Assembly (NCBI GenBank): GCA_052390515.1
Contig: JBQTGV010000121.1
Span: 1-42,967 of the forward strand
Length of the DNA: 42,967 bases
From: Candidatus Eiseniibacteriota bacterium
Lineage (GTDB): Bacteria > ARS69
Direction of reading: 5' to 3'
Positions 10,114-39,117 of the stretch are shown in pieces. The notes beneath the pieces are model-generated. The model made no database searches. It was not told the DNA's origin and was given only the letters and a program-made list of their open reading frames with translations. The position numbers and the translations under genes were made by a program. Numbering within the stretch: position 1 is the stretch's first letter; every line of letters starts with the position of its first letter.

Positions 10114-10213
10114 GCGGGCGGGCATGGCCCGCCGATGTACCGGCAGCGGCGCAGCCGGGAGAGAGCTGGGCGCGGCGCCCCAAGCCGTGCCCAGTGTAGT
10201 ATTCTGCGACGCC

Positions 10214-16513: not shown

Positions 16514-16578
16514 CGGCGGCGCCCGCGAATGAGTAGAATGTCCTTCGGCCGCCCTTGGTTTCACGGTCGAGGAAGCGC

Positions 16579-17796
16579 ATGCGAGCCATCCCCCTCTTCG
16601 TGCCGCTCGGTGCCCTCCTCTTCGCGGCCACCGCCCGCGCCGAAGTCGTCATCAACGAGTTCGATCGAGGCGGGGCGCTGGACAACGTTGAGCTGTACAA
16701 CAGCGGGCCGCCGCAGGACCTCACCGGCTGGCAGCTCGAGAACGGCATCGGCGACACGATCGACCTCGACGGCATGATCGGCACCGGTGGGTTCCGCAGC
16801 TTCGGCAAGGCGGCCTTCGTTCCCGAGGGTGGGCAGATCGAGCTCCTGGACGGCACCGCGGCGAAGCGGGACGAGGTCGCGTACGGCGATCAGGGCGGGG
16901 CGCCCCTGCCGCCGCCGGTCGGGAGCTTCTCCTGCGCGCGGCACGCCGACGGCGCCGACACCGGAAACCACGCCACGGACTGGACGCTGGACCGTACCAA
17001 GACGCTCGGCGCGAGCAACACCGTTCCCTCGCCCACGCTCGGAGCGAGGTCAGGCGTCATGAACGAGCTGGGCCGGCTCGGCGGCGGTCCGAGCCGTTCT
17101 GCCACGTGCATCGCCTTCCCGCGAGTCGAGCTCTACAATCGCGCGGACACGACCGAGTCGGTCACCGGATGGTTCCTGACCGACGGCCGGGACACGCTGA
17201 CGCTCTCCGGGACGATCGCTCCCGAAAGCGTCCTGGTCTTCTCCGCGTTCCCCGGGAACTTCTGCTTCGAGCAGACCCACGTGATCTACCTGTTCGACGA
17301 GATGGACCGGCGCGTCGACCAGTGGGGCATCGCCGGGACGACGCTGCCGGGCGCCACGCACAGTTGGCAGCGCGTCCCGGACGGTTCGGGACCGTTCGAC
17401 GGCTGGAACTACGCGACGAGCGGCGGGGACTCGACGATGTTCGTCCTCGATCACACCTTCGGGGGTTTCAATCCTCCGCCGGTCGTCGCCGCAGGGGACA
17501 TCGGCGCGGCGCCGGCGGCGGCGACACTCCTGCTGTCAGCGGCACCGAACCCTTTCCGGACGGAATCGACGGTGCTTTACGACCTGCCCGGGCAGGGTCG
17601 GCACCGGATCAGCATCCACGACGCCGCGGGCCGGAACGTGGCGACGCTCGCCACGGGCGAGGCCGCCGCTGGCCGCCACGCGGTGATCTGGGACGGCTCG
17701 ACGCGGGATCGCAGGCCGGCGCCGAGCGGAGTGTATTTCGTCCGGCTGGAATACCTGGACCGCGTCGAGGCGAGGGCGATCGTCCGCACGCGGTGA
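16579..17796 (+). CDS. Secreted protein with two lamin-tail-like domains and a C-terminal FlgD-type Ig domain
   Basis: Signal peptide ending ARA; two VINE...VELYN...GW.L units; APNPFR...IHDAAGRNVATL...WDG...SGVYFVRL tail. Confidence 0.8.
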   Translation: MRAIPLFVPLGALLFAATARAEVVINEFDRGGALDNVELYNSGPPQDLTGWQLENGIGDTIDLDGMIGTGGFRSFGKAAFVPEGGQIELLDGTAAKRDEVAYGDQGGAPLPPPVGSFSCARHADGADTGNHATDWTLDRTKTLGASNTVPSPTLGARSGVMNELGRLGGGPSRSATCIAFPRVELYNRADTTESVTGWFLTDGRDTLTLSGTIAPESVLVFSAFPGNFCFEQTHVIYLFDEMDRRVDQWGIAGTTLPGATHSWQRVPDGSGPFDGWNYATSGGDSTMFVLDHTFGGFNPPPVVAAGDIGAAPAAATLLLSAAPNPFRTESTVLYDLPGQGRHRISIHDAAGRNVATLATGEAAAGRHAVIWDGSTRDRRPAPSGVYFVRLEYLDRVEARAIVRTR

Positions 17797-17824
17797 GCCG
17801 GCTTCCGCCAAAGGAGAGTAGATC

Positions 17825-18892
17825 ATGTTCCTGCCCGCCCTCTCGCACCGCCGCCGCCGCAACCGCGCGGCGAGCACCGTTCGGCTCTCCCTCTTCGCAG
17901 TGCTGCTCCTGGGCCGTCCCGCAGGCGCCGCGGTGACCATCAACGAGTTCGACCGCGGGGCCGCCACCGACAGCGTGGAGATCTTCAACAGCGGGCCCGG
18001 CATGGTGACGCTCACGGGTTGGACGCTCCGGAACAACCTGGCCGACACCATCGTGCTTTCGGGCGTGATCGCTCCGGGCGGGTTCGTCACCCAGGCGAAG
18101 GCGTCCTTCGTGCCAGAGGGAGGGCAGATTGAGCTGCTCGACGGCACGCTCTTCCAGATGGACCAGGTGTCCTACGGCGACCAGGGCGCGGCCCCGCTCC
18201 CGCCACTGAATGCCGGCTACTCCTGTGCGCGCGTCACCAATGGGCTCGACACCGGCAACCTGGCGACGGATTTCACGCTCGATGCGACGAGCACCTTCCA
18301 GGCCAGCAACAACCCGGGCACGCCGATGCTCGGTGGTCTGACGGTGAAGAACAACGAGGCCGGCAAGTCCGGCCCGTCGCCGTCGGACCGGGCCATGGTG
18401 TGCAGCTCCTCGTATCTGGTGGAGCTGTACAACAGCAGCGGCACGGTGAGCCTCTCGGGGTGGTGGCTGACCGACGGCCGGGACGTGATGAGCCTCACCT
18501 CTTTCGGCTCGATCGGACCCGGCGCGGTCAAGGTGATCTCCGGGTTCCCGGTGAACTTCTGCTTCGAGGAGACGCAGGTGCTGTACCTGTTCGACGGCCT
18601 CGGTCGTCGCGTCGATCAGTGGGGGTTCTCCGGCACGAGCCTCGCGTCGGCGTCGGTGAGCTGGCAGCGCTTCCCGGATGGAGCGGGTCCGAACGACGGG
18701 TTCACCTTCGCGACGAGCGGCGGTGGCACGAACGTGTTCGTCGTGGCGGAGAGCTTCGGGTTCCTGAACGGCGCCTCGCCGCCGCTTCCGGGAACACCCA
18801 CGATGTCGGAGTGGGCGCTGCTCGTTCTGGCGGTCGCGGTGCTGGCCACCGGAGTGATCGCGTCGCGCCGTCGCCGGTTCGCCGTCCGCTGA
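17825..18892 (+). CDS. Paralogous double lamin-tail protein with an IPTL-CTERM sorting signal
   Basis: AAGGAG RBS; shares INEFDRG, FVPEGGQIELLDGT, YGDQG.APLPP, NFCFE, VDQWG and WQR.PDG with the upstream gene; ends TPTMSEWALLVLAVAVLATGVIASRRRR. Confidence 0.85.
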   Translation: MFLPALSHRRRRNRAASTVRLSLFAVLLLGRPAGAAVTINEFDRGAATDSVEIFNSGPGMVTLTGWTLRNNLADTIVLSGVIAPGGFVTQAKASFVPEGGQIELLDGTLFQMDQVSYGDQGAAPLPPLNAGYSCARVTNGLDTGNLATDFTLDATSTFQASNNPGTPMLGGLTVKNNEAGKSGPSPSDRAMVCSSSYLVELYNSSGTVSLSGWWLTDGRDVMSLTSFGSIGPGAVKVISGFPVNFCFEETQVLYLFDGLGRRVDQWGFSGTSLASASVSWQRFPDGAGPNDGFTFATSGGGTNVFVVAESFGFLNGASPPLPGTPTMSEWALLVLAVAVLATGVIASRRRRFAVR

Positions 18893-18900: not shown

Positions 18901-19404
18901 GTGGGGAGCGGCTCCGGAACGGGCTTCGCGCTGCGCTTCGTCGGCGTGGCGGCGGTCCTCTATGCGCTGACGTTGACGCCGCCGGCGCGCGCGCGCCTGT
19001 GGGACCCGCACCTCGCGGTGATGGCGAAGGCGACGGGCGCCGTGCTCGAGCGCCTGGGTCACTCGACGACGGTGGTGGGTTCGAGCGTCCTCTCCGACGC
19101 CATGTCCATGCAGGTCAAGCGCGGCTGCGACGCCATCGAGCCGTCGGAGCTGTTCTGGGCGGCGACGATCGCGTTCCCGGCGACCGCGGGGGAGCGGATC
19201 GTGGGGATCGTGCTCGGCACCCTGCTGATCCAGATCCTGAACGTCGCCCGCCTCGTTTCGCTCTGGCTGATCGGCGCGCGCTCCCCCGACCTCTTCGATC
19301 TCTTCCACGTCGAGATCGGCCAGGTCGTGTTCGTGATCATCGTGCTCGGCGTCTGGCTGCTCTGGCTGGAGTGGGTCGAGCGGAGGGCGGCGAGCCGAAC
19401 GTGA
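18901..19404 (+). CDS. xrtH: Exosortase H-like (IPTL-CTERM-associated) membrane transpeptidase; start approximate
   Basis: Cys-Arg-His triad pattern: VKRGCDAIE, AFPA, LNVARLVSL, FDLFHVEIGQ; immediately follows the IPTL-CTERM gene. Confidence 0.8.
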   Translation: MGSGSGTGFALRFVGVAAVLYALTLTPPARARLWDPHLAVMAKATGAVLERLGHSTTVVGSSVLSDAMSMQVKRGCDAIEPSELFWAATIAFPATAGERIVGIVLGTLLIQILNVARLVSLWLIGARSPDLFDLFHVEIGQVVFVIIVLGVWLLWLEWVERRAASRT

Positions 19405-19951
19405 CCGCCGCCCAGATCCCGCAGGTCACGGCCAGCATCGGGTAGAAGTGTCCGCGAACGGCCGCGGCCACCGTGGCGAGCGCGGGACGCAGGCTCCCCG
19501 GAACGGCGAAGGGACGGAACTGCGGCTCATCGGCAAGCTGGTCCAGCAGCGCCAGCGCGGTGATCGCCAACGCCGCGATGTGGACGAGCACGATGCCGGC
19601 GGCGAGGCCCACGAGGCGGCGCCGCGCCGGCATCCGCGTGCCGGCCACGAGCGACACGAGCAGCGCGGACGGAAGGTAGGTGCCCGACAGGCTTCCCGAC
19701 TCGCCCACCGCCTCGACGTCCGGCGCCCGCTCGGACGTGATCACCAGCTCGGTGTCGACATACTTCGTCGGGTGCGGGTGCGGCGCGAAGCGCACGCGGA
19801 CGCCGGGACCGAACCGCCCGAGCACGGCCTCGGATGCGAAGCGGTAGCCGTCGCCCCACGTTGCCGCGATCGGCGTCCACAGGAGCAGGCATCCCGCGTA
19901 CAGCGGGAGCGCCACGATCAGGAAGCGGCCGATCCGTCCGAAGGGACTCAC
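19337..19951 (-). CDS. Multi-pass membrane protein resembling exosortase-associated membrane proteins
   Basis: GTG start overlaps the kinase stop (GTGA); RFLIVALPLYAGCLLLW, YLPSALLVSLVAGT, RRLVGLAAGIVLVH, FYPMLAVTCGIW; 3' end overlaps xrtH by 68 nt. Confidence 0.6.
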   Translation of the reverse strand: MSPFGRIGRFLIVALPLYAGCLLLWTPIAATWGDGYRFASEAVLGRFGPGVRVRFAPHPHPTKYVDTELVITSERAPDVEAVGESGSLSGTYLPSALLVSLVAGTRMPARRRLVGLAAGIVLVHIAALAITALALLDQLADEPQFRPFAVPGSLRPALATVAAAVRGHFYPMLAVTCGIWAAVTFGSPPSARPTPARAARRRAR

Positions 19952-22221
19952 TCCGCCAGTTGGCCGCGCCACGATGCCGCGCGCGCCGGATCGCCCCGGG
20001 ACTCGTACAGCTTGATCAGGAAGCTCACCGCTCGAACCGTTCGCTCCTGCGTCGGCCCGTACGCCTCGACCAGCAGCGGATGCGCTTCGAGCAGGGCACG
20101 CTCCGCAGCATCGTGCCGGCCGAGTCCTCGTAGGCATTCGCCCTGCCATGCGAGAGCGTTGCCCAGCTGGCCCTTGTAGTCGGGAAGCGTGGCCCGAGTC
20201 ACCGTGACCACGTCTTCTATCATCGGCTCCGCCTCGGCGAAGCGCCCCTGCTCGATCCACAGCGCGGCCAGGTTGCTCTTGCTGGTGAGCACGTTCGGGT
20301 GCGTCTCGCCGAGCTTGCGCCTCCGCACCTCGAGGACTCGCACGTAGAGCGACTCCGCCGCGGCCACGTCGCCCTGCTTCTTCTGCGCGACCGCGAGATT
20401 GCTCATGCGCAGCAGCACGTCGGGATGCTCGGGGCCGAGCGTACGGGAGTCGACGGCCAGCACGCGCTGCAGCATCTTCACCGCCTCCTCGTAGCGGCGT
20501 TGATCCACGTACATCGTCGCCAGGTTGTTCATCGCCTTGCGGATCTCCGGGTGCTCTTCACCCAGGAGCGGAAGGCCCTCGTCGAGCACCACCTTGGCCA
20601 GCGACTCCGCGGCCGCGACCTTCCCCTGACCGAGGTAGGCACCGCTCAAGGTGGTCATGGCCGGCACGACCTGCTCCGCGTTGTCGCCGTTGATGTCGGG
20701 CGAGGAGGCCAGGGCCTCGGCCAGGATCGCCTCGGCTTTGTCGAAGCGCCCCTGCGCGCGATACAGTTCGCCGAGCGTCGCCATGGCGTCGAGCAGGCCC
20801 GGATCGCCGGCGGAGAGCCGGGCGGCGCGCGCGGCGAGCGCCTCCTCCACCAGGGACTCCGCGGGCGCATACTCGCCGAGCCTGCGGTACGTGTTGCCGA
20901 TGGTGAGGCGGAGCCGCGCCTGGATCAGCGGCTGATCCTGGAAGCCGTCCCCGATGGTCTTCGCCGCCCCGTCGAGGACCTCGCGGACGGTCACGTCGCG
21001 ACCCAGCTCCCCGGGGCTCACCGACGTCAGCATGTTCTCCAGGAATCCCGTGACCGCGTCGGACTCGTCCCGCGCGGCCTGAACGCGAGCGCGCTGCCTG
21101 TTGGACTCGATCAGCGCCGCGGTAACGGTGACCAGCACCGCCGCCACCACGCCGAGCACGAGCTTGTTGCGTTTGGCGAACTTCCGGAATCGATACGCGG
21201 CGCTGGGCGGCCCGGCGATGACCGGCTCGTCCTTGAGGTAGCGCCGGATGTCCATGGCGAAGCCGTTGGCCGTCTCGTAGCGGCGCGTACGGTCCTTCTC
21301 CATGGCCTTGAGCACGATCCAATCGAGCTCGCCCTTGAGCCGGCGCGTCAGCGTGCGGATGTCGCCTTCGGGACGGCTCGCCGCCTCCTTCGCCACGGCG
21401 CTCCTCGTGCCGGCCATGGCGCTCGGCCGCGCCGGCTCCTCCTCGCGGAGGACGCGGCGGAGCTCGACGTATCCCATCTTCGCCAGCGCCTCCGGGTCGA
21501 ACGGCAGTATGCCGGTGAGCAGCTCGTAGAGCACCACCCCGAGCGAATACACGTCGGCGCGCGTGTCGATATCGAGCGCGCCCATCTCCGCCTGCTCGGG
21601 GCTCATGTACGCCGGCGTGCCGATGAGCTGGCCCATCTGCGTGTACACGGTGCGCTCGGAGAGGCTCCCCGTCGTCGCCTTGGCGATGCCGAAGTCGATG
21701 ACCTTCGCCCGGGGAGTCCCGTCGGCGAGCGTCACCAGGATGTTCGAGGGCTTCAGGTCCCGGTGGATGATGCCTTTCTGGTGCGCGTGCTGCACGGCCT
21801 GGCACACGGTGATGAAGAGCTCCAGGCGTGCCCGGATGGAGAGCGAATGCTTCTCGCAGTACTCGGTGATGGGCACTCCCTGCACGAGGTCCATGACGAA
21901 GAACGGGCGCCCGCGGTCCGTCTCGCCGGCGTCGAGCACCTTGGCGATGCTGGGGTGATCCATCATGGCGAGCGCCTGCCGCTCGGCCTCGAAGCGGGCC
22001 AGCACCGCCTTCGTGTCCATGCCGGCCTTCAGTACCTTGAGCGCCACGCGCCGCTTGACCGGCTCGGTCTGCTGGGCGGCGTAGATCTCGCCGAAGCCGC
22101 CCTCGCCGATCTTCTCGAGGATCCGGTACGGGCCGATCTGCTGTGGTGAACCGGAGCCGGCGGCGGGTCCGACCTCGATGGAGGCGGAGCGAAGGTCGCC
22201 GGGGTCGTCGCGCTCGTTCAT
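19948..22221 (-). CDS. Hanks-type Ser/Thr kinase with TM helix and extracytoplasmic TPR array
   Basis: GEGGFG, VALK, HRDLKPSN, DFG, GTPAYMSPE; TM LVLGVVAAVLVTVTAALI; LGEEHP/LGPEHP/LGETHP TPR repeats. Confidence 0.93.
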   Translation of the reverse strand: MNERDDPGDLRSASIEVGPAAGSGSPQQIGPYRILEKIGEGGFGEIYAAQQTEPVKRRVALKVLKAGMDTKAVLARFEAERQALAMMDHPSIAKVLDAGETDRGRPFFVMDLVQGVPITEYCEKHSLSIRARLELFITVCQAVQHAHQKGIIHRDLKPSNILVTLADGTPRAKVIDFGIAKATTGSLSERTVYTQMGQLIGTPAYMSPEQAEMGALDIDTRADVYSLGVVLYELLTGILPFDPEALAKMGYVELRRVLREEEPARPSAMAGTRSAVAKEAASRPEGDIRTLTRRLKGELDWIVLKAMEKDRTRRYETANGFAMDIRRYLKDEPVIAGPPSAAYRFRKFAKRNKLVLGVVAAVLVTVTAALIESNRQRARVQAARDESDAVTGFLENMLTSVSPGELGRDVTVREVLDGAAKTIGDGFQDQPLIQARLRLTIGNTYRRLGEYAPAESLVEEALAARAARLSAGDPGLLDAMATLGELYRAQGRFDKAEAILAEALASSPDINGDNAEQVVPAMTTLSGAYLGQGKVAAAESLAKVVLDEGLPLLGEEHPEIRKAMNNLATMYVDQRRYEEAVKMLQRVLAVDSRTLGPEHPDVLLRMSNLAVAQKKQGDVAAAESLYVRVLEVRRRKLGETHPNVLTSKSNLAALWIEQGRFAEAEPMIEDVVTVTRATLPDYKGQLGNALAWQGECLRGLGRHDAAERALLEAHPLLVEAYGPTQERTVRAVSFLIKLYESRGDPARAASWRGQLAE

Positions 22222-22296
22222 GCAGGCGAGAGTAGCGAGGGGCTGCCTTCGTGCGCCAGCGTTTCTCGAAGCGTGCTCCTGGGTTAGAATCCGGCG

Positions 22297-22671
22297 ATGA
22301 ACAGCGAACGCGACGCCGCGGCACGGGCGAAGGACCGACTCCACTGGCCGGTGCGAGTCCATCGCCTGGGCGAGGAGCCTTCGGAGAGCCTGCTCGAGAG
22401 CACGACAGCCGAGGAACGGCTCGCGATGATGTGGCCCCTCGCCATGGAAGCGTGGAGCCTCGCCGGCCGCCTCGAACCGGCCTTGCCTCGCTCGAAGCTG
22501 CCCGTGCTCACCGCCGTCGAGTTCGAGGACGCCTGGACGAAGCGTGCGGTGCACCGCGTCGGGCAGATGGTTGTGCAGTTTCTGGGCCGCGAGTCCCTGA
22601 TTCAGAGCAAGCGCGCCGTGGATCGGTCCAAGGATCGAGTGGACCTGGATCTCCTGGAGGGCCGCGCGTAG
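22297..22671 (+). pseudogene. Probable in-frame deletion fusion of a small partner protein and the C-terminus of a nucleotidyltransferase
   Basis: N-half WPVRVHRLGEEP...TTAEERLAMMWPL...AW; C-half VEFEDAW...VQFLGRESLIQSKRAVDRSKDRVDLDLL resembles an NTase tail, but no catalytic G...DxD region is present. Confidence 0.55.
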
Positions 22672-22697
22672 CCGACCCGAGCAAGGAAGGAGTCGGT

Positions 22698-25547
22698 GTG
22701 AACGAGGAGCGCTGGCGGCGCCTGCGCGAGCTGTTCGCCCGGGTCCAGGAGATGCCCGAGGCGGAGCGGGCCGCGTTCGTGGACCGCGAGGCGGCCGGTG
22801 ACGCGGAGATCCGCGAGAGGCTCGAAGTACTGCTCGCCGCGGGGGCGGGCGCAGGTCCTTTCCTCTCCTCTCGCCGCGCGGACGAGCTCGGGTCCACCGT
22901 CGGCCCGTACCGGCTGCTCGAGAAGCTCGGCGAAGGCGGCTTCGGCGTCGTCTATCTCGCCGAGCAGCTTCGCCCGATCCAGAGGCGCGTGGCCCTCAAG
23001 CTGATCAAGCCGGGCATGGACACGCGGCAGGTCATCGCGCGCTTCGAGGCGGAGCGGCAGGCTCTCGCACGCATGGATCACCCGGGCATCGCCCAGGTCT
23101 TCGAGGCGGGGGAGACGGACCGGGGACATCCGTACTTCGTGATGGAGTACGTGCCGGGAGTTCCGATCACCGCGTTCTGCGACGGAGAGCGGCTGCGGAT
23201 CCGGCGGAGGCTCGAGCTGTTCCTCTCCGTGTGCGACGCCGTGCAGCACGCGCATCAGCGCGGCGTGATCCACCGCGATCTCAAGCCGTCCAACGTGCTC
23301 GTCGCGCGCCGGGACGGAACGGCCGGCGCGAAGGTCATCGACTTCGGCATCCTCAAGGCGACGACCGGTGCGGAGGACGAGGCCACCGCCATGACCCAGC
23401 AGGGACTGATCCTCGGGACCCTCGGTTACATGAGCCCGGAGCAGATCGGCGCCGTCGAGGCTGTCGTCGACGTCCGTTCGGACATCTACTCGCTGGGCGT
23501 GCTCCTGTACGAGATGCTCGCCGGGGTGCTGCCGTTCGACCGGGCGCGCCTGCGCCGCGCGTCCCGGACCGAGGCGGCTCGCGTGATTCGCGAGGAGGAT
23601 CCTCCGCTCCTGAGCGCGCGGGTCGCAGCAACGGAGTCGGCGGAGCAGGTCGCCGGGGCGCGTGCCGTCGATCGCCGCACGTTGCTCCGCGAGCTACGCG
23701 GCGAGCTCGAATGGATCACGCAGCGCGCGCTGGAGCGGGATCCGGAGCGGCGCTACGCGTCCGCTTCCGAGCTGGCCGCCGACGTGCGCCGCCACCAGGC
23801 GAACGAGCCCGTGGCGGCGGGTCCCCCGAGCACGTTCTACGTCGTGCGGAAGTTCGCCCGGAGGCACCGCGCCGGCGTCCTGGCCGCCGCGCTCGTCCTC
23901 GGGGCGATCGTGGCCGGAGGGATCTCGACCGGCATCGCCCTGAGCCGCGCGGTTCGCGCGGAGCGCACGGCGCACCGCGAGGCGGAGTCGGCTCGTCGTG
24001 TGGCCGATTTCCTGGCCGAGCTGTTCCGCACGGCGAGCCCCAGCCGCTCCCGGGGTGAGACGGTCACCGCCCGCACGCTGCTGGACCAGGGTTCCCGCCG
24101 AATCCGTGCGTCGCTGCACGAGGATCCACACGTGCGCGCGCGTCTGCTCGGCGCGCTCGGGCAGGCGCATCTGAGCCTCGGGCTGGTCGACGAGGGGCTG
24201 GCTCTCTCGCGCGAGGCGCTCGCCACGAGCGAGTCCGCGCAGCCGCCGGAGCGGATGGAGACGGCCGAGCGGCTCATCGACCTCGCCGCCGGGCTGCGCC
24301 TGGCCGGACAGCCGGCGGAGATCGAAGCCCTGCTCGAGCGGGCCGTCCTGGCGGCGCGGACGTCCGGAGGGGAGGCTTCGCCCCTGCTCGCCCGCTGCCT
24401 CTGGGTGAAGGGAGCGTGGCTCGTGGACCGCGGCGACGAGGCAGCGGCGGACTCGCTCGTCACCGAGGGAATCCGGCTGTGCGAAGGGAGCACCGACCCG
24501 GACGTGAACGTGTTCCTCCGGCTCCACCGGCTGAAGGCGACGATCGCGTTCCGCCGCTACGACCTCGAGACCGCGGAGCGCCATTACCTGCGCGCGCTCG
24601 AGCTCTCCGGGACGGAGGGCGCGGATCCGCCGGACGCGATCCACCGGCATCTCGCCTCGCTGTACAGTGCCCTGGAGGATCGCGCCAAGGCGGTGCACCA
24701 TGCGGAGGAGGCGGTGCGCCTCGCGCGGCAGGTCTATCCGCCGGAGCACCCCTTCCTGGCCGACGCCCTGAGCGCCCACGCCGATGCGCTGGCGAGCCGG
24801 GGGGAGCACGAGCAGGCGGCGGCGGCGCGCGAGGAAGCGATCGCGATCCTGCGGGCGGCCGGCCCGCAGCAGATGCTCGCCGCGGAGCTGAGCCGGGCGG
24901 CCGTCACCTACCTCCAGTCCGGCGATCCCGAGCGGGCGATGCGGCGCAGCGAGGAGGCCTGGGCCGCGTACCACGAACTCTACGGCGCGGAGAACGTCCG
25001 CACGGCGCAGGAGGCGACGAACCTGGCGCGCTGGTACGCGGACGGGGGGCAGAAGCAGCGCGCGGACTCGACGTTCCGAGCCGCCTTGCCCGTGCTCGAC
25101 CGGCTCGACCCGCAGGGGTTCTTCACCGCGTACGCGTACATGGGCCACGCCAACGTCGCCCGTGACCTGGGACAGCACGCGCGTGCCGATGATCTCTACC
25201 GGCACGCGGAGGCGAACCTGGATTCGGCGGACGTCGGCGTGCGGCCCTACTTCGCCGAGTGCCGCGTCGACTGCGCCTACCTGCGCTCGCTGCAGGGCCG
25301 GCACGCCGAGGCGGACTCTTTACTTCGGGAAGCCGTCGGGCTCCTGTCGGAGGACGGGCTGGACGGCGACTGCTGGGCCTTTGTCACCTGGGCCGCGGCG
25401 CGCGCGCAAGCCGGGGACGACGACGGGGCGGTCGAGAAGCTCCGCGAGGCGGCACGGTGCGGCGCCACGCCGGGAGACGTCGGCAAGTACCCGGAGCTCG
25501 CGCGGCTCCGCTCGGTCGCGGGCTATCCCTTCGACAGCTCGTCGTAG
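22698..25547 (+). CDS. Hanks-type Ser/Thr kinase with TM helix and long TPR array (ECF-associated type)
   Basis: AAGGAG RBS; ERWRRLRELF N-terminal extension; GEGGFG, VALK, HRDLKPSN, DFG, GTLGYMSPE; TM AGVLAAALVLGAIVAGGI; TPR-like helices. Confidence 0.93.
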   Translation: MNEERWRRLRELFARVQEMPEAERAAFVDREAAGDAEIRERLEVLLAAGAGAGPFLSSRRADELGSTVGPYRLLEKLGEGGFGVVYLAEQLRPIQRRVALKLIKPGMDTRQVIARFEAERQALARMDHPGIAQVFEAGETDRGHPYFVMEYVPGVPITAFCDGERLRIRRRLELFLSVCDAVQHAHQRGVIHRDLKPSNVLVARRDGTAGAKVIDFGILKATTGAEDEATAMTQQGLILGTLGYMSPEQIGAVEAVVDVRSDIYSLGVLLYEMLAGVLPFDRARLRRASRTEAARVIREEDPPLLSARVAATESAEQVAGARAVDRRTLLRELRGELEWITQRALERDPERRYASASELAADVRRHQANEPVAAGPPSTFYVVRKFARRHRAGVLAAALVLGAIVAGGISTGIALSRAVRAERTAHREAESARRVADFLAELFRTASPSRSRGETVTARTLLDQGSRRIRASLHEDPHVRARLLGALGQAHLSLGLVDEGLALSREALATSESAQPPERMETAERLIDLAAGLRLAGQPAEIEALLERAVLAARTSGGEASPLLARCLWVKGAWLVDRGDEAAADSLVTEGIRLCEGSTDPDVNVFLRLHRLKATIAFRRYDLETAERHYLRALELSGTEGADPPDAIHRHLASLYSALEDRAKAVHHAEEAVRLARQVYPPEHPFLADALSAHADALASRGEHEQAAAAREEAIAILRAAGPQQMLAAELSRAAVTYLQSGDPERAMRRSEEAWAAYHELYGAENVRTAQEATNLARWYADGGQKQRADSTFRAALPVLDRLDPQGFFTAYAYMGHANVARDLGQHARADDLYRHAEANLDSADVGVRPYFAECRVDCAYLRSLQGRHAEADSLLREAVGLLSEDGLDGDCWAFVTWAAARAQAGDDDGAVEKLREAARCGATPGDVGKYPELARLRSVAGYPFDSSS

Positions 25548-26098
25548 AGCCAGGCGCGGGCGAAGGCCCAGTCGCGGAGGATGGTGCGCTCGGAGGTCTC
25601 CAGCGTCTCCGCGACCTCCTCCACGCTCAGGCCTCCGTAGAAGCGCAGCCGCACGACCTGTGCGGCGCGGGCGTCCTGGCGGCCCAGCGTCTCGATCGCG
25701 TCGTCCAGCGCGAGGATCGTCTCCGGATCCCCGGTGTCGGCGAGGACCGCGGCATCCTCGAGCTCCAGCGTGACCTTCGCCGCGGGCTTTCCTTCCGAGT
25801 CTCCGCCCCGCTTGATCCGACCCCGTGCGCGTGCGTGCTCGACCAGGATCCGCCGCATGGCCAGCGCCGCGGCGGCGAAGAACTGCCCGCGGCTCCGCCA
25901 CTGGCCTCCGTCGTCGGGGCGCATGCGCAGGAATGCCTCGTGCACCAGCTCGGTGGACTGCAGCGTGTGACCGGTTCGCTCGTCCAGCATGCGGGCGTGC
26001 GCGATCGCCTTCAGCTCGTCGTAGACCTGGGCGAAGAAGGCGTCCGAGGCCGCGCGTCCCGCTGCCTCGCCGCCCGCCCCTGACTGGTCCTCGCTCAT
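25523..26098 (-). CDS. ECF sigma factor, kinase-associated ECF43-like type
   Basis: VYDELKAIAH...HTLQSTELVHEAFLRM, FFAAAALAMRRILVEHAR...KRGG, VVRLRFYGGLSVEEVAE..ETSERTILRDWAFARAWL. Confidence 0.92.
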   Translation of the reverse strand: MSEDQSGAGGEAAGRAASDAFFAQVYDELKAIAHARMLDERTGHTLQSTELVHEAFLRMRPDDGGQWRSRGQFFAAAALAMRRILVEHARARGRIKRGGDSEGKPAAKVTLELEDAAVLADTGDPETILALDDAIETLGRQDARAAQVVRLRFYGGLSVEEVAETLETSERTILRDWAFARAWLYDELSKG

Positions 26099-26262
26099 GG
26101 CCCGGATGGTAGCCGCCCCGGACGGCGGCCTCAACCGGCCCAGCGCGGCCGATCCAGTGTCACCCTGGAGCCGGCTTCGTCGCCCGTAGCGGCAGCCGGC
26201 CGGGACCCGAGAGGCCGGAGGCGGGCCCGGCCCCGCACCCTCGAACCGAAGGAGAAGGAGTC

Positions 26263-26475
26263 ATGGCGAAGCTCGTCGCGCGAGTCCTGGGAATGGCCGC
26301 CGCCCTGGGGGCGCTGCTGCCCTCCGCCAGCGAGGCGGGAAAGTCCCTGAATCACAACCAGATCCTGCTTCGCGCGGGGGTCTTCGCGCTCGCCGCGGCT
26401 CTCGGAGCATTCCTGCCCGGAGCGAGCGAGGCCGGCCGGTCGCTCAACCACAGCCAGACCATCCTCCGCAGCTAG
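26263..26475 (+). CDS. 70-aa putative secreted peptide precursor with two tandem signal-peptide/core units
   Basis: AAGGAG RBS; residues 12-37 and 44-69 are 20/26 identical; each unit is a hydrophobic stretch + ASEA + G[KR]SLNH[NS]Q..LR. Confidence 0.8.
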   Translation: MAKLVARVLGMAAALGALLPSASEAGKSLNHNQILLRAGVFALAAALGAFLPGASEAGRSLNHSQTILRS

Positions 26476-26557
26476 CGGAGCGGCCACCGAGGACCGACAC
26501 GGCGAGCCGAGCGCGGCGAATCCGGTCGGGCCGGCGCGAGCCGGGGAGGCAGCGATC

Positions 26558-27592
26558 ATGAGATCTCTCACCGATATCGCCTGGGGGACGGCATTGTTGT
26601 GGATCGCGGCCGCCCCCGCCGCGGCGGCTCCTCTGGGCAAGGAGTTCACCTACCAGGGCCGGCTCGAGCAGAGCGGCACCCCGATGAACGGCACGGCCCA
26701 TCTTCGCTTCGGTCTGTGGGACGCGGCGACCGGCGGTGCCCAGATCGGGACCACGCAGATGCTGAGCAACGTCCCGGTCGTGGATGGTCGCTTCACCGTC
26801 CAGCTCGACGGCGCGGGGCAGTTCGGCTCCACCGCCTGGAGCGGCGATGCGCGCTGGCTGCAGATCGAGGTCTGCAACGATCCGGCGTGCGCCACGTCCA
26901 CGATTCTCTCGCCGCGGCAGTCGGTCACCGCCGCCCCCTACGCGCGGCACGCCGCAGGACCTTGGGTGACGAACGGGACGACCCTGTCGTACGGCGGCGG
27001 GAACGTCGGGATCGGCACGACGACGCCCAACACAATGCTGTCGCTGGGCAGTGCGAATGCAAACAGCAAGCTCCTGGTTTGGGACGGCGGTCCGGGCACC
27101 GGACTGGGATTCGGTGTAGGTCCGGCTCAGTTCCGGATCCACCTCGACTTGCCGACGAATCGCTTCTCGTTCCTGAACGCTCCTTCCGGCAGTGAGATCT
27201 TCACCATCACGGGGGCCGGCAACGTGGGCGCCGGCACGAGCGCTCCCGCGGCGAAGCTCGACGTCCGCGGCGACGTGAAGCTGGGGCCCTCGGGGCAATA
27301 CTTCGCCCCGTCCGGCCAGGAGAACCTGCGCATCCTGCGCGGCAGCATCAACACTAACGGCGGCGTCGTCGCGGGATCGGGATTCACCGTGGGACACGTG
27401 GGTGTCGGTTGGTACACCGTCTACTTCAGCCCTGCCTTCGCGAGCGCGCCGACCGTTACCGTCAGCGGCGGGGGCTTGACGGTCGCGCACCTGGGGACCG
27501 CTCCCACGACGACGAAGGTCGATGTGTACGTGACCTTCCAGGGGAACTACACGGACTGGCCCTTCTACTTCACCGCCATCGGGCCGCGCTGA
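26558..27592 (+). CDS. Secreted fibre-like protein (FTYQGRL N-domain, GNVGIGT repeats, variable C-terminal beta domain)
   Basis: GGAGG RBS; signal peptide; FTYQGRL...LSPRQ.VTAAPYA; GNVGIGTTTP and GNVGAGTSAPAAKLDVRG repeats. Confidence 0.8.
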   Translation: MRSLTDIAWGTALLWIAAAPAAAAPLGKEFTYQGRLEQSGTPMNGTAHLRFGLWDAATGGAQIGTTQMLSNVPVVDGRFTVQLDGAGQFGSTAWSGDARWLQIEVCNDPACATSTILSPRQSVTAAPYARHAAGPWVTNGTTLSYGGGNVGIGTTTPNTMLSLGSANANSKLLVWDGGPGTGLGFGVGPAQFRIHLDLPTNRFSFLNAPSGSEIFTITGAGNVGAGTSAPAAKLDVRGDVKLGPSGQYFAPSGQENLRILRGSINTNGGVVAGSGFTVGHVGVGWYTVYFSPAFASAPTVTVSGGGLTVAHLGTAPTTTKVDVYVTFQGNYTDWPFYFTAIGPR

Positions 27593-28992
27593 GCGGTTCG
27601 AGAGTCATGTTCGGACAGGGCCCACGCGAATGGCCAGAGGAGGAATCGAGATGAAGCTTCGCGAATCGTCCGGTCTGCGCGTCGTGCCGATACTCGCCGC
27701 TCTCGTGGCCGGGGTGGCGGAGCATGCATCCGCCCAGTACGCCCTGAGTTGGCAGACGATCGACAGCGGTGGCGTCATGCAATCTACGGGCGGGACCTAC
27801 ACGCTCGGCGGCACGATCGGGCAGGCGGATGCCGGAGCCCTGTCCGGTGACGTGTACATGCTGGCCGGCGGGTTCTGGACCGGGGGCGGCTCGACCGTCG
27901 TCGGCGTGTCGGAGGGCGATGCAGAGGCGGCGGCGGATCGTCCATCCGCGTTTCGGATCCACGCCCCGGCGCCGAATCCGGTCGTCCGGGAAACCACGGT
28001 CGCGTTCGAAATTCCCGAGACACGGCGCGTCAGCGCGCGCGTCTTCGACGTCGCCGGGCGGCTGACGCGGACGCTCGTCGACGGGACCCTCCCCGCGGGG
28101 CAGCACGTGCGCGTGTGGGACGCCACGAACGAGAGCGGTCGGCGCGTGTCGGCCGGCATCTACTTCGTGGTGCTTGACGCCGGCGCGGAGCGCGCCCGGC
28201 AGAGGGTCGCCGTCGTCCGCTAGAGCTCCATTTCGAAGGGCGACGGCACGATCTCGTGTCACCCGCGACGGCCCGGCGGTGGGCCACCCCGATCGGAGGC
28301 AGACGACCATGAAAGCACCGATGATGGCAGGTTTCTCGACCCTCCTCGGGATGCTGGCGGCGGACCCTGCGGCCTCCGCTCCCCTGGGCACGGCGTTCAC
28401 CTACCAGGGTCGGCTCGACCAGAACGGCGCGCCGCTCGACGGGACGGCGCACCTTCGCTTCCGCTTGTGGGACGCGGCGAGCGGTGGAGCGCAGGTCGGC
28501 GTGAGCCAGCTCGTCCCCAGCGTACTCCTTGCGGACGGGCTCTTCACCGTCGCGCTGAACGGCGCTGGCGAGTTCGGCCCCAACGCGTGGAACGGAGACG
28601 CGCGCTGGCTCGAGGTCGAGGTGTGCACCGATCCGGCCTGCGGCAGCTCGGCGGTTCTCTCTCCCCGCCAACCGGTTACCGCTGCGCCGTACGCGCGACA
28701 TGCTGCGGGGCCGTGGACGATCACGGGCACGACACTCTCGTACAGTAGCGGGAATGTCGGGATCGGCACGACGGCGCCCACCACGACGCTGTCGTTGGGT
28801 AGCTCGAATGCGAACAGCAAGCTACTGGTTTGGGACGGCGGTCCGGGCACCGGACTGGGATTCGGTGTAGGTCCGGCTCAGTTCCGGATCCACCTCGACC
28901 TGCCGACGAATCGCTTCTCGTTCCTGAACGCTCCTTCCGGCAGTGAGATCTTCACCATCACGGGGGCCGGCAACGTGGGCGCCGGCACGAGC
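27074..28992 (+). repeat. Near-identical 168-bp direct repeat: 27074-27241 and 28825-28992
   Basis: Manual alignment shows one mismatch (27149 T vs 28900 C); offset 1751 bp; flanking codons differ at many synonymous sites. Confidence 0.9.
27651..28223 (+). CDS. Small secreted protein with a Gly-rich N-domain and C-terminal FlgD-type Ig domain
   Basis: GAGGAGG RBS; signal ending ASA; YALSWQTIDSGG..STGGTYTLGGTIGQADAG..GGFW; APNP...FDVAGRLTRTL...WDA...AGIYFV. Confidence 0.8.
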   Translation: MKLRESSGLRVVPILAALVAGVAEHASAQYALSWQTIDSGGVMQSTGGTYTLGGTIGQADAGALSGDVYMLAGGFWTGGGSTVVGVSEGDAEAAADRPSAFRIHAPAPNPVVRETTVAFEIPETRRVSARVFDVAGRLTRTLVDGTLPAGQHVRVWDATNESGRRVSAGIYFVVLDAGAERARQRVAVVR

Positions 28993-29361
28993 ACTCCTGC
29001 GGCGAAGCTCGACGTTCGTGGAACGGTGAAGCACGGCCCGAGCGGGCAGTACTTCGTTCCCGGAACCGAGGAGAACCTGCGGATCCTCCGTGGCACGGTC
29101 GATGCGCTCGGCAACATCCTGGAGGGGTCGGGCTTCAGCGCGACCCGTACGAACGTCGGCATCTACCTGATCACCTTCCACAGCTCGTTCACGGACCTGC
29201 CGGCGTCGACCGCGACCGCCAGCACGCCGTCCAGCGGCTCGCGGATCTGCCACATCGCTGCCGGCTCCACCGCCGGCCAGACCTACGTCTCGATCAAGGA
29301 CGGCAGCGGCAACTACGTGGACAGCGGCTTCCACTTCTGGATCATCGGTCCGCGGTTCTAG
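28309..29361 (+). CDS. Second FTYQGRL fibre-like paralogue
   Basis: GGAGG RBS; collinear with 26558-27592 up to ENLRILRG, then a diverged tip ending FHFWIIGPRF. Confidence 0.8.
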   Translation: MKAPMMAGFSTLLGMLAADPAASAPLGTAFTYQGRLDQNGAPLDGTAHLRFRLWDAASGGAQVGVSQLVPSVLLADGLFTVALNGAGEFGPNAWNGDARWLEVEVCTDPACGSSAVLSPRQPVTAAPYARHAAGPWTITGTTLSYSSGNVGIGTTAPTTTLSLGSSNANSKLLVWDGGPGTGLGFGVGPAQFRIHLDLPTNRFSFLNAPSGSEIFTITGAGNVGAGTSTPAAKLDVRGTVKHGPSGQYFVPGTEENLRILRGTVDALGNILEGSGFSATRTNVGIYLITFHSSFTDLPASTATASTPSSGSRICHIAAGSTAGQTYVSIKDGSGNYVDSGFHFWIIGPRF

Positions 29362-33446: not shown

Positions 33447-33503
33447 CGGAGCCGGGGAAGACCGCCCTGGCGGCAGCCGTCTCCCCCCTGTAGCATGTTC
33501 GTG

Positions 33504-36488: not shown

Positions 36489-36528
36489 AATCTGACGATG
36501 AACGCCCGCTTCGCTCTCTGAGGAAACC

Positions 36529-39117
36529 GTGGCTCCTTTCGTGACGCTCGCCGCGGGAATCGCCGTGGTCCTCTTCGCCGGCCCGGCCGCTCCGCTCGCC
36601 GCCGGCCCGTGCACGCCGCAGTTCGTCCGGGAGCTGGATCCCTTCCCGCTCTACGACGGGCAGGGGCCGGTCGCGGGGGCCTGGAACGGTGGCCTGCACA
36701 ACGCCCGCCCTCAGCTCGTGGACATCGACGCCGACGGCGACCTCGACCTCTTCGTCCAGGAGGAGAACGGGCAGCTCCGCCTCTATCGGAACGCCGGGAC
36801 TCCGGCGGCTGCGAGCTGGGTGCTGGAGACCGACGACTTCGGAGGCGTGCACGAGTACTACTTCGCCCGCTTCGTCGACGTGGACTCCGACGGCGACTAC
36901 GACGTGTTGGCCGAGGCCGATCCCTACATCAAGGACATCGGCGGGGTGCTGGTGCAGTTCACCGTGGCGGCCCTGTGGACGAACGTCGGCACGCCTCAGT
37001 CCGCGCAGTTCCAGAATCTCTCTCCGCGTCCGGACGGCTACTTCACGGACGACACCGGCGAGCCCATCCCCTTCACCACGACCACGCCGGAGTTCGTGGA
37101 TCTGGAGGGGGACGGGGACCAGGATCTCCTCCTCGGCGAGGTGTCGGGCAACGTCATCCTCTACCGTAACGTCGGCGGGCCGGGGAATCCGGTCTTCCAT
37201 TTCGAGACCGACACCTACCAGGACATGCGGATCGTTGCGGGTACGTGCACGTCGCTGCGCGGGCCGCAGCCGCCGGACCTTCGCCACGGGTTCATGCTGT
37301 TCTCCTTCTACGACATCAATGCCGACTCGCGGCCCGACCTGTTCGTCGGCGACGAGTTCAACTTCAACTCCTACTTCTGGCTGAACGTCGGGGGTGCCGG
37401 CGCGAGCCCGGACTTCTCCTGCCAGACCGAGACTTACTATCCGGACCCGAACCAGCCGCCGCAGGGCTTCGGACCGCGCCTCCTCTCGGCGTTCGGGGAC
37501 CTCGACGCGGACGGCGACGCAGACGCGGTGGCCGGCTCGGGCTTCTCCAGCACGCTGGGCCTCCAGTTCTTCCGCAACATCGGGACGTCCCAGTTCCCCT
37601 TCCACGTTCTCGAATCGACGAACTGGCTTCCCGAGTTCGATTGGGGCTGGAACAGCGCGCCCGCCTTCGCCGACCTGGATCGGGACGGGGACCGCGACAT
37701 GTTCCTCGGCTCCCCCTCGCGGCAGCTCGCCTCCCGGTGGGAGAACATCGGAACGGCGGCCGCGCCGCAGCTCGCCGTGGTCGATTCCGTCTGGCTCGCG
37801 ATTCCCAACACGGATTGGGTGGCGGCGGACTTCGCCGACATCGACGCCGACGGCGACGAGGACTACATGGTGGGAGGCACGTTCGGCGAGATCCGCTGGT
37901 TCCGGAACGACGGCGACGGGCCGCTGCCCAGCGACTTCGTGGAGGTCCTGGGCGATCCGGACTTCGGGCTGCCGCCGGACCGGACGTTCCGCATCACGAT
38001 CGATCAGCAGTCCGTCCCGCGGTTCGTCGACACCGACGCCGATGGGGACCTCGACATCGTCGTCGGGTACTTCAACGGCGTCTCGCTGCGGGAGGCGACG
38101 CTGCTGCACTTCCGGAACGACGGCACACCCACGGCGCACGACTTCGTGCTGGCGTCGGATGACTACCGCGGACTCGGGGAGCTGGGGCAGGGTACCGCGC
38201 CGACCTTCGGAGATCTCGACGGAGACGGCGACCTCGACCTCGTGGTCGGGCGGGACGACGGGCTGCTGTCGCTGCTGCGCAACGTGGGGACACGGAAGCA
38301 CCCGGCCTACTTCCTCGAACAGGCGAACGTGCTCGACGTGGGCGCGCGCTCGATCCCGTTCCTCGTCGATCAGGACGCGGACGGAGACCTGGATCTCGCC
38401 GTGGGAGAGAGCGGCGGAGGGCTCAACTTCCTGCGCAACGTCTCTCCGGCCCCGGCCAATCCCACTCCGTTCGCTCTGCAGGAGCCGGTGCAGGACGCGG
38501 ACATCGACGGGCGGCGTTTCGTCCCGTTCCGCTGGGAGCAGTCCTTCGCGCCGGGAGCCGGTCCGGAGGCAAGCTACGAGCTGCGGCTGACCTCGGATCC
38601 CGACCTACCCCCCTCGGAGTGGACCGTCATTCCCGTGACCGCCAACCACACCAGGGTGCGGCTGTACTCCGTCGGGTACGCGCTCGCGCCCGAAGTGTGG
38701 TGGACGGTGGAGGCGAAGAGCGGATGCTCCAACGCGCCGATGCCGGAGTGGCGCCGCCTCGTGCACACCACCGTGGACCTCGCCCACCAGGATCTACCGG
38801 ACGGCAGCGAGCCCAAGTCGCTCCATGCCACGGAGGAGTTCTCGCTCGCGGTGACGAGCGTGTTCCCTTCGCCGTTCTCCGACGAGGTCCGCGTGACCTA
38901 CACCGTGCCCGCCAGCGGACGCGTGCGCATCACCGTGCACGACGCGGCCGGACGAGCGGTCGCTGTGCTGCGCGACGCCGACCGCGCGCCGGGCGAGCAC
39001 ACGGAGACGTGGGGCGGGCGTGACCACGATGGACACGCCGTCGCGCCCGGGATCTACGTGGTGCGCGTGGAACAGGGCGGACACGTCGCGACCGGACGGG
39101 TGGCGCATCTCCGGTGA
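36529..39117 (+). CDS. Secreted FG-GAP/VCBS repeat protein with a FlgD-type C-terminal domain
   Basis: About ten D.D.DGD.DL Ca-binding repeats with Y/FRN turns; PSPF...HDAAGRAVAVL...WGGRD...PGIYVVR tail. Confidence 0.87.
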   Translation: MAPFVTLAAGIAVVLFAGPAAPLAAGPCTPQFVRELDPFPLYDGQGPVAGAWNGGLHNARPQLVDIDADGDLDLFVQEENGQLRLYRNAGTPAAASWVLETDDFGGVHEYYFARFVDVDSDGDYDVLAEADPYIKDIGGVLVQFTVAALWTNVGTPQSAQFQNLSPRPDGYFTDDTGEPIPFTTTTPEFVDLEGDGDQDLLLGEVSGNVILYRNVGGPGNPVFHFETDTYQDMRIVAGTCTSLRGPQPPDLRHGFMLFSFYDINADSRPDLFVGDEFNFNSYFWLNVGGAGASPDFSCQTETYYPDPNQPPQGFGPRLLSAFGDLDADGDADAVAGSGFSSTLGLQFFRNIGTSQFPFHVLESTNWLPEFDWGWNSAPAFADLDRDGDRDMFLGSPSRQLASRWENIGTAAAPQLAVVDSVWLAIPNTDWVAADFADIDADGDEDYMVGGTFGEIRWFRNDGDGPLPSDFVEVLGDPDFGLPPDRTFRITIDQQSVPRFVDTDADGDLDIVVGYFNGVSLREATLLHFRNDGTPTAHDFVLASDDYRGLGELGQGTAPTFGDLDGDGDLDLVVGRDDGLLSLLRNVGTRKHPAYFLEQANVLDVGARSIPFLVDQDADGDLDLAVGESGGGLNFLRNVSPAPANPTPFALQEPVQDADIDGRRFVPFRWEQSFAPGAGPEASYELRLTSDPDLPPSEWTVIPVTANHTRVRLYSVGYALAPEVWWTVEAKSGCSNAPMPEWRRLVHTTVDLAHQDLPDGSEPKSLHATEEFSLAVTSVFPSPFSDEVRVTYTVPASGRVRITVHDAAGRAVAVLRDADRAPGEHTETWGGRDHDGHAVAPGIYVVRVEQGGHVATGRVAHLR

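Follow-up and report, generated by a model that had tools for sequence, protein, structure and literature searches.

Known systems and general comparison

The closest known systems to the one analyzed here include the ECF43 sigma factors that are switched on by a Hanks-type kinase, EcfK/PknS of Xanthomonas citri and EcfP/PknT of Vibrio parahaemolyticus (PMC13147305, PMC8999054). These are ECF sigma factors of the PF07638 type that lack an anti-sigma factor, carry a Thr residue in the sigma-2.2 motif (QATE in EcfK, STTA in EcfP, and QTTA as the ECF43 consensus), are encoded next to a transmembrane kinase, and have secreted or surface machinery as the output; PknS also has periplasmic TPRs. The signal for ECF43 kinases is stated to be unknown, and activation through the periplasmic TPR region of PknS is left to future work (PMC13147305). 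In Porphyromonas gingivalis, a product of the secretion regulon, the C-terminal domain (CTD) of the T9SS cargo protein PorA, binds the sensor PorY in the periplasm and turns on the PorXY-SigP (ECF) cascade (PMC12152298). In the RRNPP systems (Rap-Phr, NprR-NprX, PlcR-PapR), a pro-peptide with a Sec signal and a conserved C-terminal core is encoded directly beside a signal-less TPR protein, and in MgrB-PhoQ type feedback, a very small hydrophobic protein, induced by the pathway that it modulates, acts on the sensor.

The stretch of DNA analyzed here (the window) comprises 42,967 nucleotides of contig JBQTGV010000121.1 of a Candidatus Eiseniibacteriota bacterium (GCA_052390515.1). It encodes a sigma factor/kinase pair of the ECF43 type together with a tiny, previously undescribed peptide gene, which may be the missing signal or feedback part of this widespread but poorly understood type of switch. 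In contrast to EcfK/PknS and EcfP/PknT, the module carries a conserved mini-peptide gene under a predicted ECF-type promoter and, in many loci, a TPR-only protein, neither of which was found in the parts of the above papers that were consulted, and it is multiplied, with at least 6 close paralogues in one genome. Compared with PorA-PorY/PorX-SigP, the sensor is a Hanks kinase rather than a histidine kinase, and the candidate ligand is a ∼13-residue peptide rather than a folded T9SS C-terminal domain. The ∼38-aa forms of the peptide encoded beside a signal-less TPR protein resemble the RRNPP arrangement, but the TPR-only proteins (235-280 aa) carry only TPR families, with no HTH or phosphatase domain, the organism belongs to a diderm candidate phylum, no Opp importer was linked to the loci, and the output would run through a kinase/sigma pair. 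There is no sequence similarity to MgrB, and the sensor again is a Hanks kinase.

Gene content of the module

The original prediction described two membrane Ser/Thr kinases with external TPR arrays, an ECF sigma factor without a nearby anti-sigma gene, and a divergent secreted tandem-peptide gene leading three secreted-protein genes; this observation is confirmed, with genes and coordinates as described (Table 1). In what follows, C44 is another contig of the same genome and L numbers designate related loci.

Table 1. Features of the sigma factor/kinase/mini-peptide region (positions in the window)
Position	Strand	Feature	Description	Evidence
19948-22224	-	STK1	Hanks-type Ser/Thr kinase, one predicted membrane segment, C-terminal TPR_10/TPR_12 array; not conserved next to the module in related loci	Pkinase E 6e-42, TPR_10 E 2.5e-47, TPR_12 E 1.5e-43; hydropathy peak at residues 353-375; no counterpart in syntenic loci
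22698-25547	+	STK2	Hanks-type receptor kinase with a conserved ∼65-aa N-terminal extension, kinase domain, one predicted membrane segment and a ∼530-aa TPR-like predicted ectodomain; GTG start set by comparison with orthologues; convergent with the ECF gene, overlapping it by 25 bp; the conserved kinase of the module	Pkinase E 1e-39, TPR_12 E 8e-25; orthologues at 54-70% identity beside ECF43 genes in L044, L045, L055 and L062
25523-26134	-	ECF	ECF43-type sigma factor; first in-frame start TTG 26134, likelier ATG 26098; contains HTLQSTELVHEA; candidate phosphoacceptor Thr of QSTE is residue 61 counted from the TTG, codon 25952-25954	PF07638 E 1.8e-48 (165 bits, cut-off 21.1); TIGR02999 178.4 bits (cut-off 126.15)
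26157-26186	+	ECF-like promoter motif	GTG[GT]CAC[CT]-N12-TCG[GT]CGC, about 77 bp upstream of the peptide start codon, pointing away from the ECF gene	21.4 bits with a weight matrix trained only on 8 sites from other genomes; the only site of 11 bits or more in the window
26263-26475	+	NHNQ mini-peptide gene	Fused double form, 70 aa; two copies of a hydrophobic signal-like segment, a small-x-small cleavage-type site and a ∼13-residue polar core; cores at about 26338-26376 and 26434-26472	HMM E 3e-14; family of 41 proteins
26558-27592	+	fibA	Predicted secreted tail-fibre-like protein	PDB 8OND (Bd2133) E 2.3e-4 over residues 209-262; PHROG tail fibre E 1.5e-6; best fold match of the structural model is the R1 pyocin fibre 6CL5, E 1.7e-4, with low TM-score
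27630-28223	+	T9	Small, predicted secreted protein with a T9SS C-terminal sorting domain (FlgD_ig/Por_Secre_tail)	FlgD_ig E 1e-7; TIGR04183 26.5 bits (cut-off 23); T9-fib pairs in L044, L045, L056, L061 and L062
28306-29361	+	fibB	Paralogue of fibA	About 65% identity to fibA

In each kinase, exactly one membrane segment was predicted from hydropathy between the kinase domain and the TPR part, so that the TPR part should be extracytoplasmic, an architecture that matches that of PknS-like receptor kinases. In the sigma-2.2 motif of the ECF protein, one acidic residue is kept, as in EcfK, and the Thr motif is retained in 13 of the 14 ECF43-like paralogues of the genome. No anti-sigma domain was found among the flanking open reading frames (ORFs) scanned. 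The sigma factor and the kinase fit the ECF43/Hanks-kinase type. The fibA, T9 and fibB genes follow the peptide gene on the same strand with no terminator-like site; their N-terminal signal peptides were judged by eye only. A search of the ESM Atlas returned no usable hit.

The NHNQ mini-peptide family

The small ORF divergent from the sigma gene is a real gene. It has a strong Shine-Dalgarno sequence and a GC3 of 0.87, like its neighbours, and, of the 26 aligned codon pairs of its two internal copies, 8 are identical, 12 differ synonymously and 6 nonsynonymously. Tandem Repeats Finder detected no DNA repeat, so the repeat is kept at the protein level. The peptide is a fused double of an undescribed family of 24- to 38-aa NHNQ mini-peptides, with 41 database proteins. 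No Pfam or NCBIfam family matched the window peptide or the family proteins P0020, P0005, P0040, P0041 and P0002, the only rows being nonsignificant and far below their cut-offs. The four first-found C44 mini-ORFs are 65-83% identical in DNA, while their 60-nt flanks are only 23-43% identical, which, like the codon differences in the window gene, indicates purifying selection. A literature search for NHNQT found no relevant paper, and a search for peptide ligands of kinases linked to ECF sigma factors found none described for an ECF43 kinase in the listed titles and abstract openings.

Co-occurrence of such peptides with ECF43/kinase loci, proposed beforehand as a test, was found. An HMM scan of all six-frame ORF tails of the genome gave 7 family ORFs at E<0.1, all of which lie in the window or in an array of five paralogous kinase/ECF43 modules on C44, and, of the 6 ECF43 paralogues at least 67% identical to that of the window, 5 have a divergent mini-ORF about 60-200 bp from the gene. 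Across 30 family loci from 5 related genomes, 3 other MAGs and metagenome contigs, an ECF43 gene lies within 700 bp in 13 loci, a TPR-only gene within 400 bp in 10, and a kinase domain within 1.1 kb in 12, with at least one of these in 24. As these loci are paralogues and close kin, the counts overstate independent support. Six of the 30 loci show no regulator nearby, three of which are 3-kb loci or degenerate. One orthologous ECF-STK2-T9-fib locus (L044, in a genome that is 73% complete) has no mini-ORF by HMM, whereas in L045 a short-form ORF lies on the other side of the ECF gene. An initial HMM built from long forms missed the short forms; its family-level and phylum-level searches covered the same 12 genomes.

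The most constant direct neighbour of the peptide gene in other loci is the TPR-only protein, which has no signal peptide and in this genome is encoded on C44, not in the window. A perfect phyletic match between the two is not upheld, as genome G005 (73% complete) has peptides but no TPR-only hit. The long forms of the peptide have a canonical signal peptide with an invariant Ala at -1. However, most newly found members are 24- to 30-aa forms with a ∼13-residue hydrophobic N-terminus that contains a conserved Asp/Glu and no basic n-region, which is atypical for Sec export, so that export is not assured. In fused doubles, the second hydrophobic segment would be expected to insert the other way round. 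Multi-repeat forms also exist (P0040 and P0041), and fused doubles occur elsewhere, including L054, where no kinase was hit in the 20-kb locus.

Predicted promoter

The weight matrix trained on 8 sites from other genomes gave 16 hits of 14 bits or more in 4.27 Mb. Six of these lie 60-106 bp upstream of 6 of the 7 mini-ORFs, and seven are within 300 bp of an ECF43 gene, against about 0.06 expected. The same motif precedes fib or T9 genes in L044, L045, L046 and L047. The spacing between the putative -35 and -10 elements (14 nt between TGTCAC and CGTC) is shorter than in classical ECF promoters. A sigma-54 reading of the TGGCAC box was rejected on inspection of the sites, because the second conserved block lies 12-13 nt downstream, not 5, and because many sites read TGTCAC. 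That the ECF drives the peptide-fibre operon, as originally predicted, is thus well supported, although by inference from sequence alone, without transcript data for positions 25400-27700.

Possible roles of the mini-peptide

The interpretation offered in the original prediction, an autoinducing loop in which the exported peptide binds a TPR ectodomain, the kinase phosphorylates the ECF, and the ECF drives the peptide-fibre operon, is only partly supported. Gene content, family membership, genomic co-occurrence and the shared promoter motif are results of the sequence analysis, whereas the topology of the kinases, phosphorylation of the sigma factor, its recognition of the promoter, and export, processing and binding of the peptide are inferred. 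Activation, as opposed to inhibition, is a guess. The suggestion that two peptide variants and two kinases form cognate pairs is not supported, since STK1 is absent from every related locus and fused doubles also occur elsewhere.

In the explanation that we favour, which we consider about as likely as not, the region is one copy of a repeated signalling module. STK2, a receptor kinase with a predicted extracytoplasmic TPR-like domain, most likely activates the adjacent sigma factor by phosphorylating the Thr of QSTE, by analogy with EcfK/PknS and EcfP/PknT, and the sigma factor then most likely reads the predicted promoter, from which the mini-peptide gene would be transcribed together with two tail-fibre-like genes and a small T9SS-cargo gene. 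In this view, the mini-peptide is a dedicated third component of the module, not a chance ORF, and most likely feeds back on the pathway, with either sign, by binding a TPR partner. That partner could be the kinase ectodomain, if the peptide is exported and cleaved after its Ala-x-Ala-type site, or the TPR-only protein, although an exported peptide and this signal-less protein would sit in different compartments. Given feedback, the TPR-only protein appears somewhat the likelier of the two and the kinase ectodomain somewhat the less likely. Co-folding of the STK ectodomain, the TPR-only protein and the 38-aa peptide of L055, run only with all three chains and with the peptide as partner, gave scores of 0.39, 0.39 and 0.18, against 0.02 and 0.00 with the partner replaced and 0.66 with the kinase ectodomain replaced, a result that we count neither for nor against binding.

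The association of the peptide with regulators rather than with any one output is in line with a regulatory role: it occurs with the TPR-only gene alone, with the ECF alone, or as a single gene facing a convergent gene (C44 22077-22160). What switches on the receptor kinases that control ECF43 sigma factors is an open question, for which the 13-residue core offers a concrete, synthesizable candidate with near one-to-one genomic pairing with sigma/kinase modules, a predicted promoter that ties it to the sigma factor, and a second candidate partner in the TPR-only protein, making the question testable with peptides, two purified TPR proteins and one reporter. The analysis also adds an unannotated small-gene family, most copies of which are 24-38 codons long, a size that gene callers may miss. 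An intriguing but unlikely possibility, which the data do not exclude, is that each paralogous kinase/ECF43 pair of this lineage has its own variant of the ∼13-residue peptide, made from the sigma factor's own promoter and serving as the cognate ligand of the pathway's TPR receptor; together, the pairs would form a multichannel, self-inducing peptide signalling system in a diderm bacterium and would give the first ligand for an ECF43-linked Hanks kinase.

Among the alternatives, the one that survives best, although we consider it unlikely, is that the mini-peptide is an output of the module, a small exported peptide acting on the envelope, the fibres or other cells and co-expressed with fibre and T9SS-cargo genes simply as a member of the regulon. 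It is the first gene of the predicted ECF-type transcription unit with fibre or cargo genes in the window, L043, L042 and C44 38231, the long forms have a canonical signal peptide, and tandem and fused copies fit a need for dosage. However, a fib gene lies within 1.1 kb in only 6 of 30 loci, against 24 of 30 for ECF, kinase or TPR-only genes, there is close to one variant per sigma/kinase paralogue in this genome, and fibre loci without the peptide exist (L044 and L046-L048).

Less likely still, the mini-ORF could be a cis-acting leader whose translation, or export-coupled stalling at the conserved C-terminal motif as in SecM, VemP or MifM, would control the downstream genes. The constant layout (promoter, strong Shine-Dalgarno sequence, mini-ORF, downstream genes), the position of the conserved motif 4-7 codons before the stop and the N-terminal hydrophobic segment would fit such a role. 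Against it, no terminator-like site and no RNA structure beyond that of shuffled sequences (z 0.04) were found in 26187-26570, the downstream genes are heterogeneous, some mini-ORFs have none on their strand (C44 22077-22160, and the L059 and L060 peptides, which are convergent with the ECF), and multicopy and multirepeat forms fit a peptide product better.

It is similarly doubtful that the feedback ligand of the kinase is the small T9SS-cargo protein, in the way the PorA CTD binds PorY, with the mini-peptide having another role. A small CTD protein is paired with fib genes in the window as well as in L044, L045, L056, L061 and L062, but the genome gives about 130 matches to this CTD, so that adjacency is less specific, and the sensor is a Hanks kinase, not PorY. 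A RiPP precursor, its core modified by a dedicated enzyme before export, is very unlikely, because the leader looks like a Sec signal peptide, not a RiPP leader, and no modifying enzyme is encoded beside the peptide in the window or on C44, even though cores are repeated in P0040 and P0041 and 2 of the 30 loci carry candidate genes, a radical-SAM/SPASM gene divergent from a peptide gene in L057 and an ABC-2 permease fused to a CPBP/Rce1-like protease directly upstream in L041.

Gene content of the region

The region 19948-29361 lies in DNA of about 70% G+C, and its genes are as listed in the original prediction, so that the underlying observation was confirmed. Both Ser/Thr kinases, STK1 and STK2, match the Pkinase domain, with E values of 6e-42 and 1e-39, respectively, and both carry C-terminal TPR_10/TPR_12 repeats. 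Each of them has a single hydropathy peak between the kinase domain and the TPR part, so the TPR part is predicted to face the periplasm. The ECF sigma factor passes the curated cut-offs of PF07638 and TIGR02999 and carries HTLQSTELVHEA. The ECF43 consensus at this place is QTTA, with the second Thr as the phosphoacceptor, whereas EcfK has QATE (PMC13147305) and EcfP has STTA (PMC8999054); the QSTE motif of the protein described here fits this pattern. No anti-sigma domain was found in the neighboring ORFs that were scanned. STK1 has no counterpart in any of the syntenic loci, and the ORF directly downstream of it, which encodes a hydrophobic protein, has no Pfam match.

Coordinates of the features in the window, on contig C44 of the same genome, and in two related loci
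Sequence	Coordinates	Strand	Feature
Window	10124-10770	+	Two small adjacent ORFs
Window	16555-18892	+	Two secreted Lamin-Tail-Domain proteins
Window	19340-19936	-	Hydrophobic ORF, ~199 aa
Window	19948-22224	-	STK1
Window	22698-25547	+	STK2
Window	25523-26134	-	ECF gene (ATG at 26098 is a likelier start)
Window	26157-26186		Promoter-like motif, 21.4 bits
Window	26263-26475		Small ORF (mini-peptide gene)
Window	33495-39117	+	Two large secreted proteins with T9SS sorting domains
C44	about 17.6-50.9 kb		Array of kinase/ECF43 pairs (loci L067, L068)
C44	17695-18375		TPR-only gene
C44	22077, 31569, 35466, 38231, 49332, 49521		Six mini-ORFs of 24-30 codons
C44	44941-45513		ECF43 paralogue without a divergent mini-ORF
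L057	8422-9588 and 10163-10846	- and +	Radical-SAM/SPASM gene divergent from a peptide-family gene; different ECF sigma directly downstream
L041	10283-12247	-	ABC-2 permease fused to a CPBP/Rce1-like intramembrane protease

The small ORF and its protein family

The small ORF is a real gene. It has a strong ribosome-binding site and a third-position G+C content of 0.87, like that of its neighbors, and it contains two copies of the same unit, which consists of a hydrophobic segment, a small-x-small site, and a polar core. Of the 26 aligned codon pairs of the two copies, 8 are identical, 12 differ synonymously, and 6 change the residue, which shows selection on the protein and also explains why a search for DNA repeats detected nothing in this gene.

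A profile search of 5.8 billion proteins yielded 41 family members with E values of ≤0.01 among 542 candidates. Most of these are 36-39 aa long and have an invariant His-Asn pair in an NHNQ[TS] core, an invariant Ala at the predicted -1 cleavage position, and a conserved Pro six residues before it. In addition to the window protein itself (P0001), three other members (P0002, P0003, and P0008) are fused doubles, and the related locus L054 holds a fourth, with a decayed second copy. Two further proteins of 89-90 aa (P0040 and P0041) carry three and six NHNQT-like units, respectively, without a signal segment, but come from contigs that are too short to show their genomic context. Pfam and NCBIfam gave no significant matches, and a full-text literature search for NHNQT returned only an irrelevant paper. 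Related records name Candidatus Eisenbacteria, a phylum represented by only 12 species genomes in the collection searched.

Pairing with the kinase/ECF43 modules

A search of the genome with a loose regular expression, followed by an HMM scan of every six-frame ORF tail, identified 7 family ORFs at E<0.1, namely, the window gene and six short-form ORFs on contig C44. This contig carries an array of five kinase/ECF43 pairs arranged like STK2 and the ECF gene in the window, with the two genes convergent and overlapping, along with a TPR-only gene and T9SS cargo genes with DUF5122 beta-propeller or NHL repeats. The genome encodes 6 ECF43 paralogues that are at least 67% identical to the one in the window, and 5 of these have a divergent mini-ORF about 60-200 bp from the gene. 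The four mini-ORFs that were found first each have a Shine-Dalgarno sequence and are 65-83% identical to each other in DNA, while their 60-nt flanks are only 23-43% identical. Short forms were also detected in related genomes: in G011 on contigs C6 (locus L045) and C11, in G007 on contig C2, in G001 on contig C6 (with an NHHQT variant), and in G005.

Altogether, 30 family loci were counted, with genes within 2 kb of each other treated as a single locus. An ECF43 gene is found within 700 bp in 13 of these loci, an orthologue of the TPR-only gene within 400 bp in 10 loci, and a kinase-domain hit within 1.1 kb in 12 loci; at least one of these neighbors is present in 24 loci. These counts are descriptive and do not represent independent trials, as the loci include paralogues and close kin, and several of them are short contigs. 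The six loci without such a neighbor are C44 38231, which lies inside the array but 3 kb from the nearest ECF gene; L042; L054, where the fused, decayed copy is located near a transposase-like gene; L057, where a different ECF sigma (Sigma70_r2/r4_2) is encoded directly downstream; and L086 and L092, which are 3-kb loci. Conversely, one orthologous ECF-STK2-T9-fib locus (L044, in a genome that is 73% complete) has no mini-ORF detectable by HMM.

Putative promoter

The upstream regions of peptide genes from different assemblies share a motif of the form GTG[GT]CAC[CT]-N12-TCG[GT]CGCAT. A weight matrix that was trained only on 8 sites from other genomes and used to scan all 4.27 Mb of this genome gave 16 hits of 14 bits or more. 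Six of these lie 60-106 bp upstream of 6 of the 7 mini-ORFs, and seven lie within 300 bp of an ECF43-like gene, where about 0.06 would be expected from the share of the genome that this covers. The site that precedes the peptide gene is the only one of 11 bits or more in the window. With no terminator-like sites between the genes, the mini-peptide gene, fibA, the T9SS cargo gene T9, and fibB probably form a single unit. That the ECF43 paralogues read this motif is inferred from its location and its two-box form. The same motif precedes fib or T9 genes in the related loci L044, L045, L046, and L047, whereas the upstream motif in L057 differs from the one in the window and is shared with sites in L058.

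The TPR-only protein

In 10 loci, the peptide gene is followed within about 100 bp by a gene for a 235- to 280-aa protein made only of TPR_10/TPR_12 repeats. This protein has a conserved N-terminal RARWL-type motif and no signal peptide, for which there is also no room, since the gap from the peptide stop codon is about 76 bp in locus L055. In this genome, its orthologue (63% identity) is encoded on C44 directly upstream of a kinase gene. Strong orthologues occur in 4 of the 12 genomes of the phylum, while the peptide family occurs in 5, with a sixth being borderline. In locus L041, the fusion of an ABC-2 permease with a CPBP/Rce1-like protease lies directly upstream of two peptide genes and the TPR-only gene and could be a processing or export partner.

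Predicted outputs

The fibA and fibB products weakly match the Bdellovibrio fiber protein Bd2133 (PDB 8OND; E value of 2.3e-4 over 54 residues) and also match PHROG tail-fiber families. A monomer model has a mean pLDDT of 61.8, with two confident terminal domains and a poor middle part, and its only fold match at E≤0.001 is the R1 pyocin fiber, with a low TM-score. The designation “fiber-like” is therefore reasonable but weakly supported. The 197-aa T9 protein carries a T9SS sorting domain.

Proposed mechanism

The original prediction, in which an exported peptide binds a TPR ectodomain, the kinase phosphorylates the ECF, and the ECF drives the peptide-fiber operon, was partly supported by these data. 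The gene content and family membership, the coding selection on the mini-ORF, its genomic pairing with the ECF43/kinase modules, and the shared upstream motif come directly from the sequence analysis. In contrast, the phosphorylation of the Thr residue of QSTE by STK2 and the resulting activation of the ECF are inferred from the ECF43 literature, the control of the peptide-fiber unit by the ECF is inferred from the motif, and feedback of the peptide through binding to a TPR partner remains a hypothesis. The kinase ectodomain is favored as such a partner by the canonical signal peptide of the long forms and the shared periplasmic location, whereas the TPR-only protein is favored by the tight gene adjacency and by the short forms, which look poorly suited to Sec export. 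The two candidate partners sit in different compartments, so the choice between them hinges on the topology of the peptide.

Alternatively, the mini-peptide could be purely an output of the module or a cis-acting leader ORF; other possibilities are that the small T9SS cargo protein has a PorA-like role (PMC12152298) or that the peptide is a RiPP precursor. The core of the module, a sigma factor and a kinase, is already known, while the mini-peptide, the TPR-only partner, and the multicopy layout were not found to be described in the literature and family databases that could be searched.

Other genes in the window

Two small adjacent ORFs appear, judging by eye, to represent a nucleotidyltransferase/HEPN (DUF86-type) toxin-antitoxin pair. 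Of the two secreted Lamin-Tail-Domain proteins, one has a T9SS sorting domain and the other has a weak IPTL-CTERM match. One of the two large secreted proteins with T9SS sorting domains also contains FG-GAP repeats; the genome as a whole gives about 130 matches to this sorting domain.
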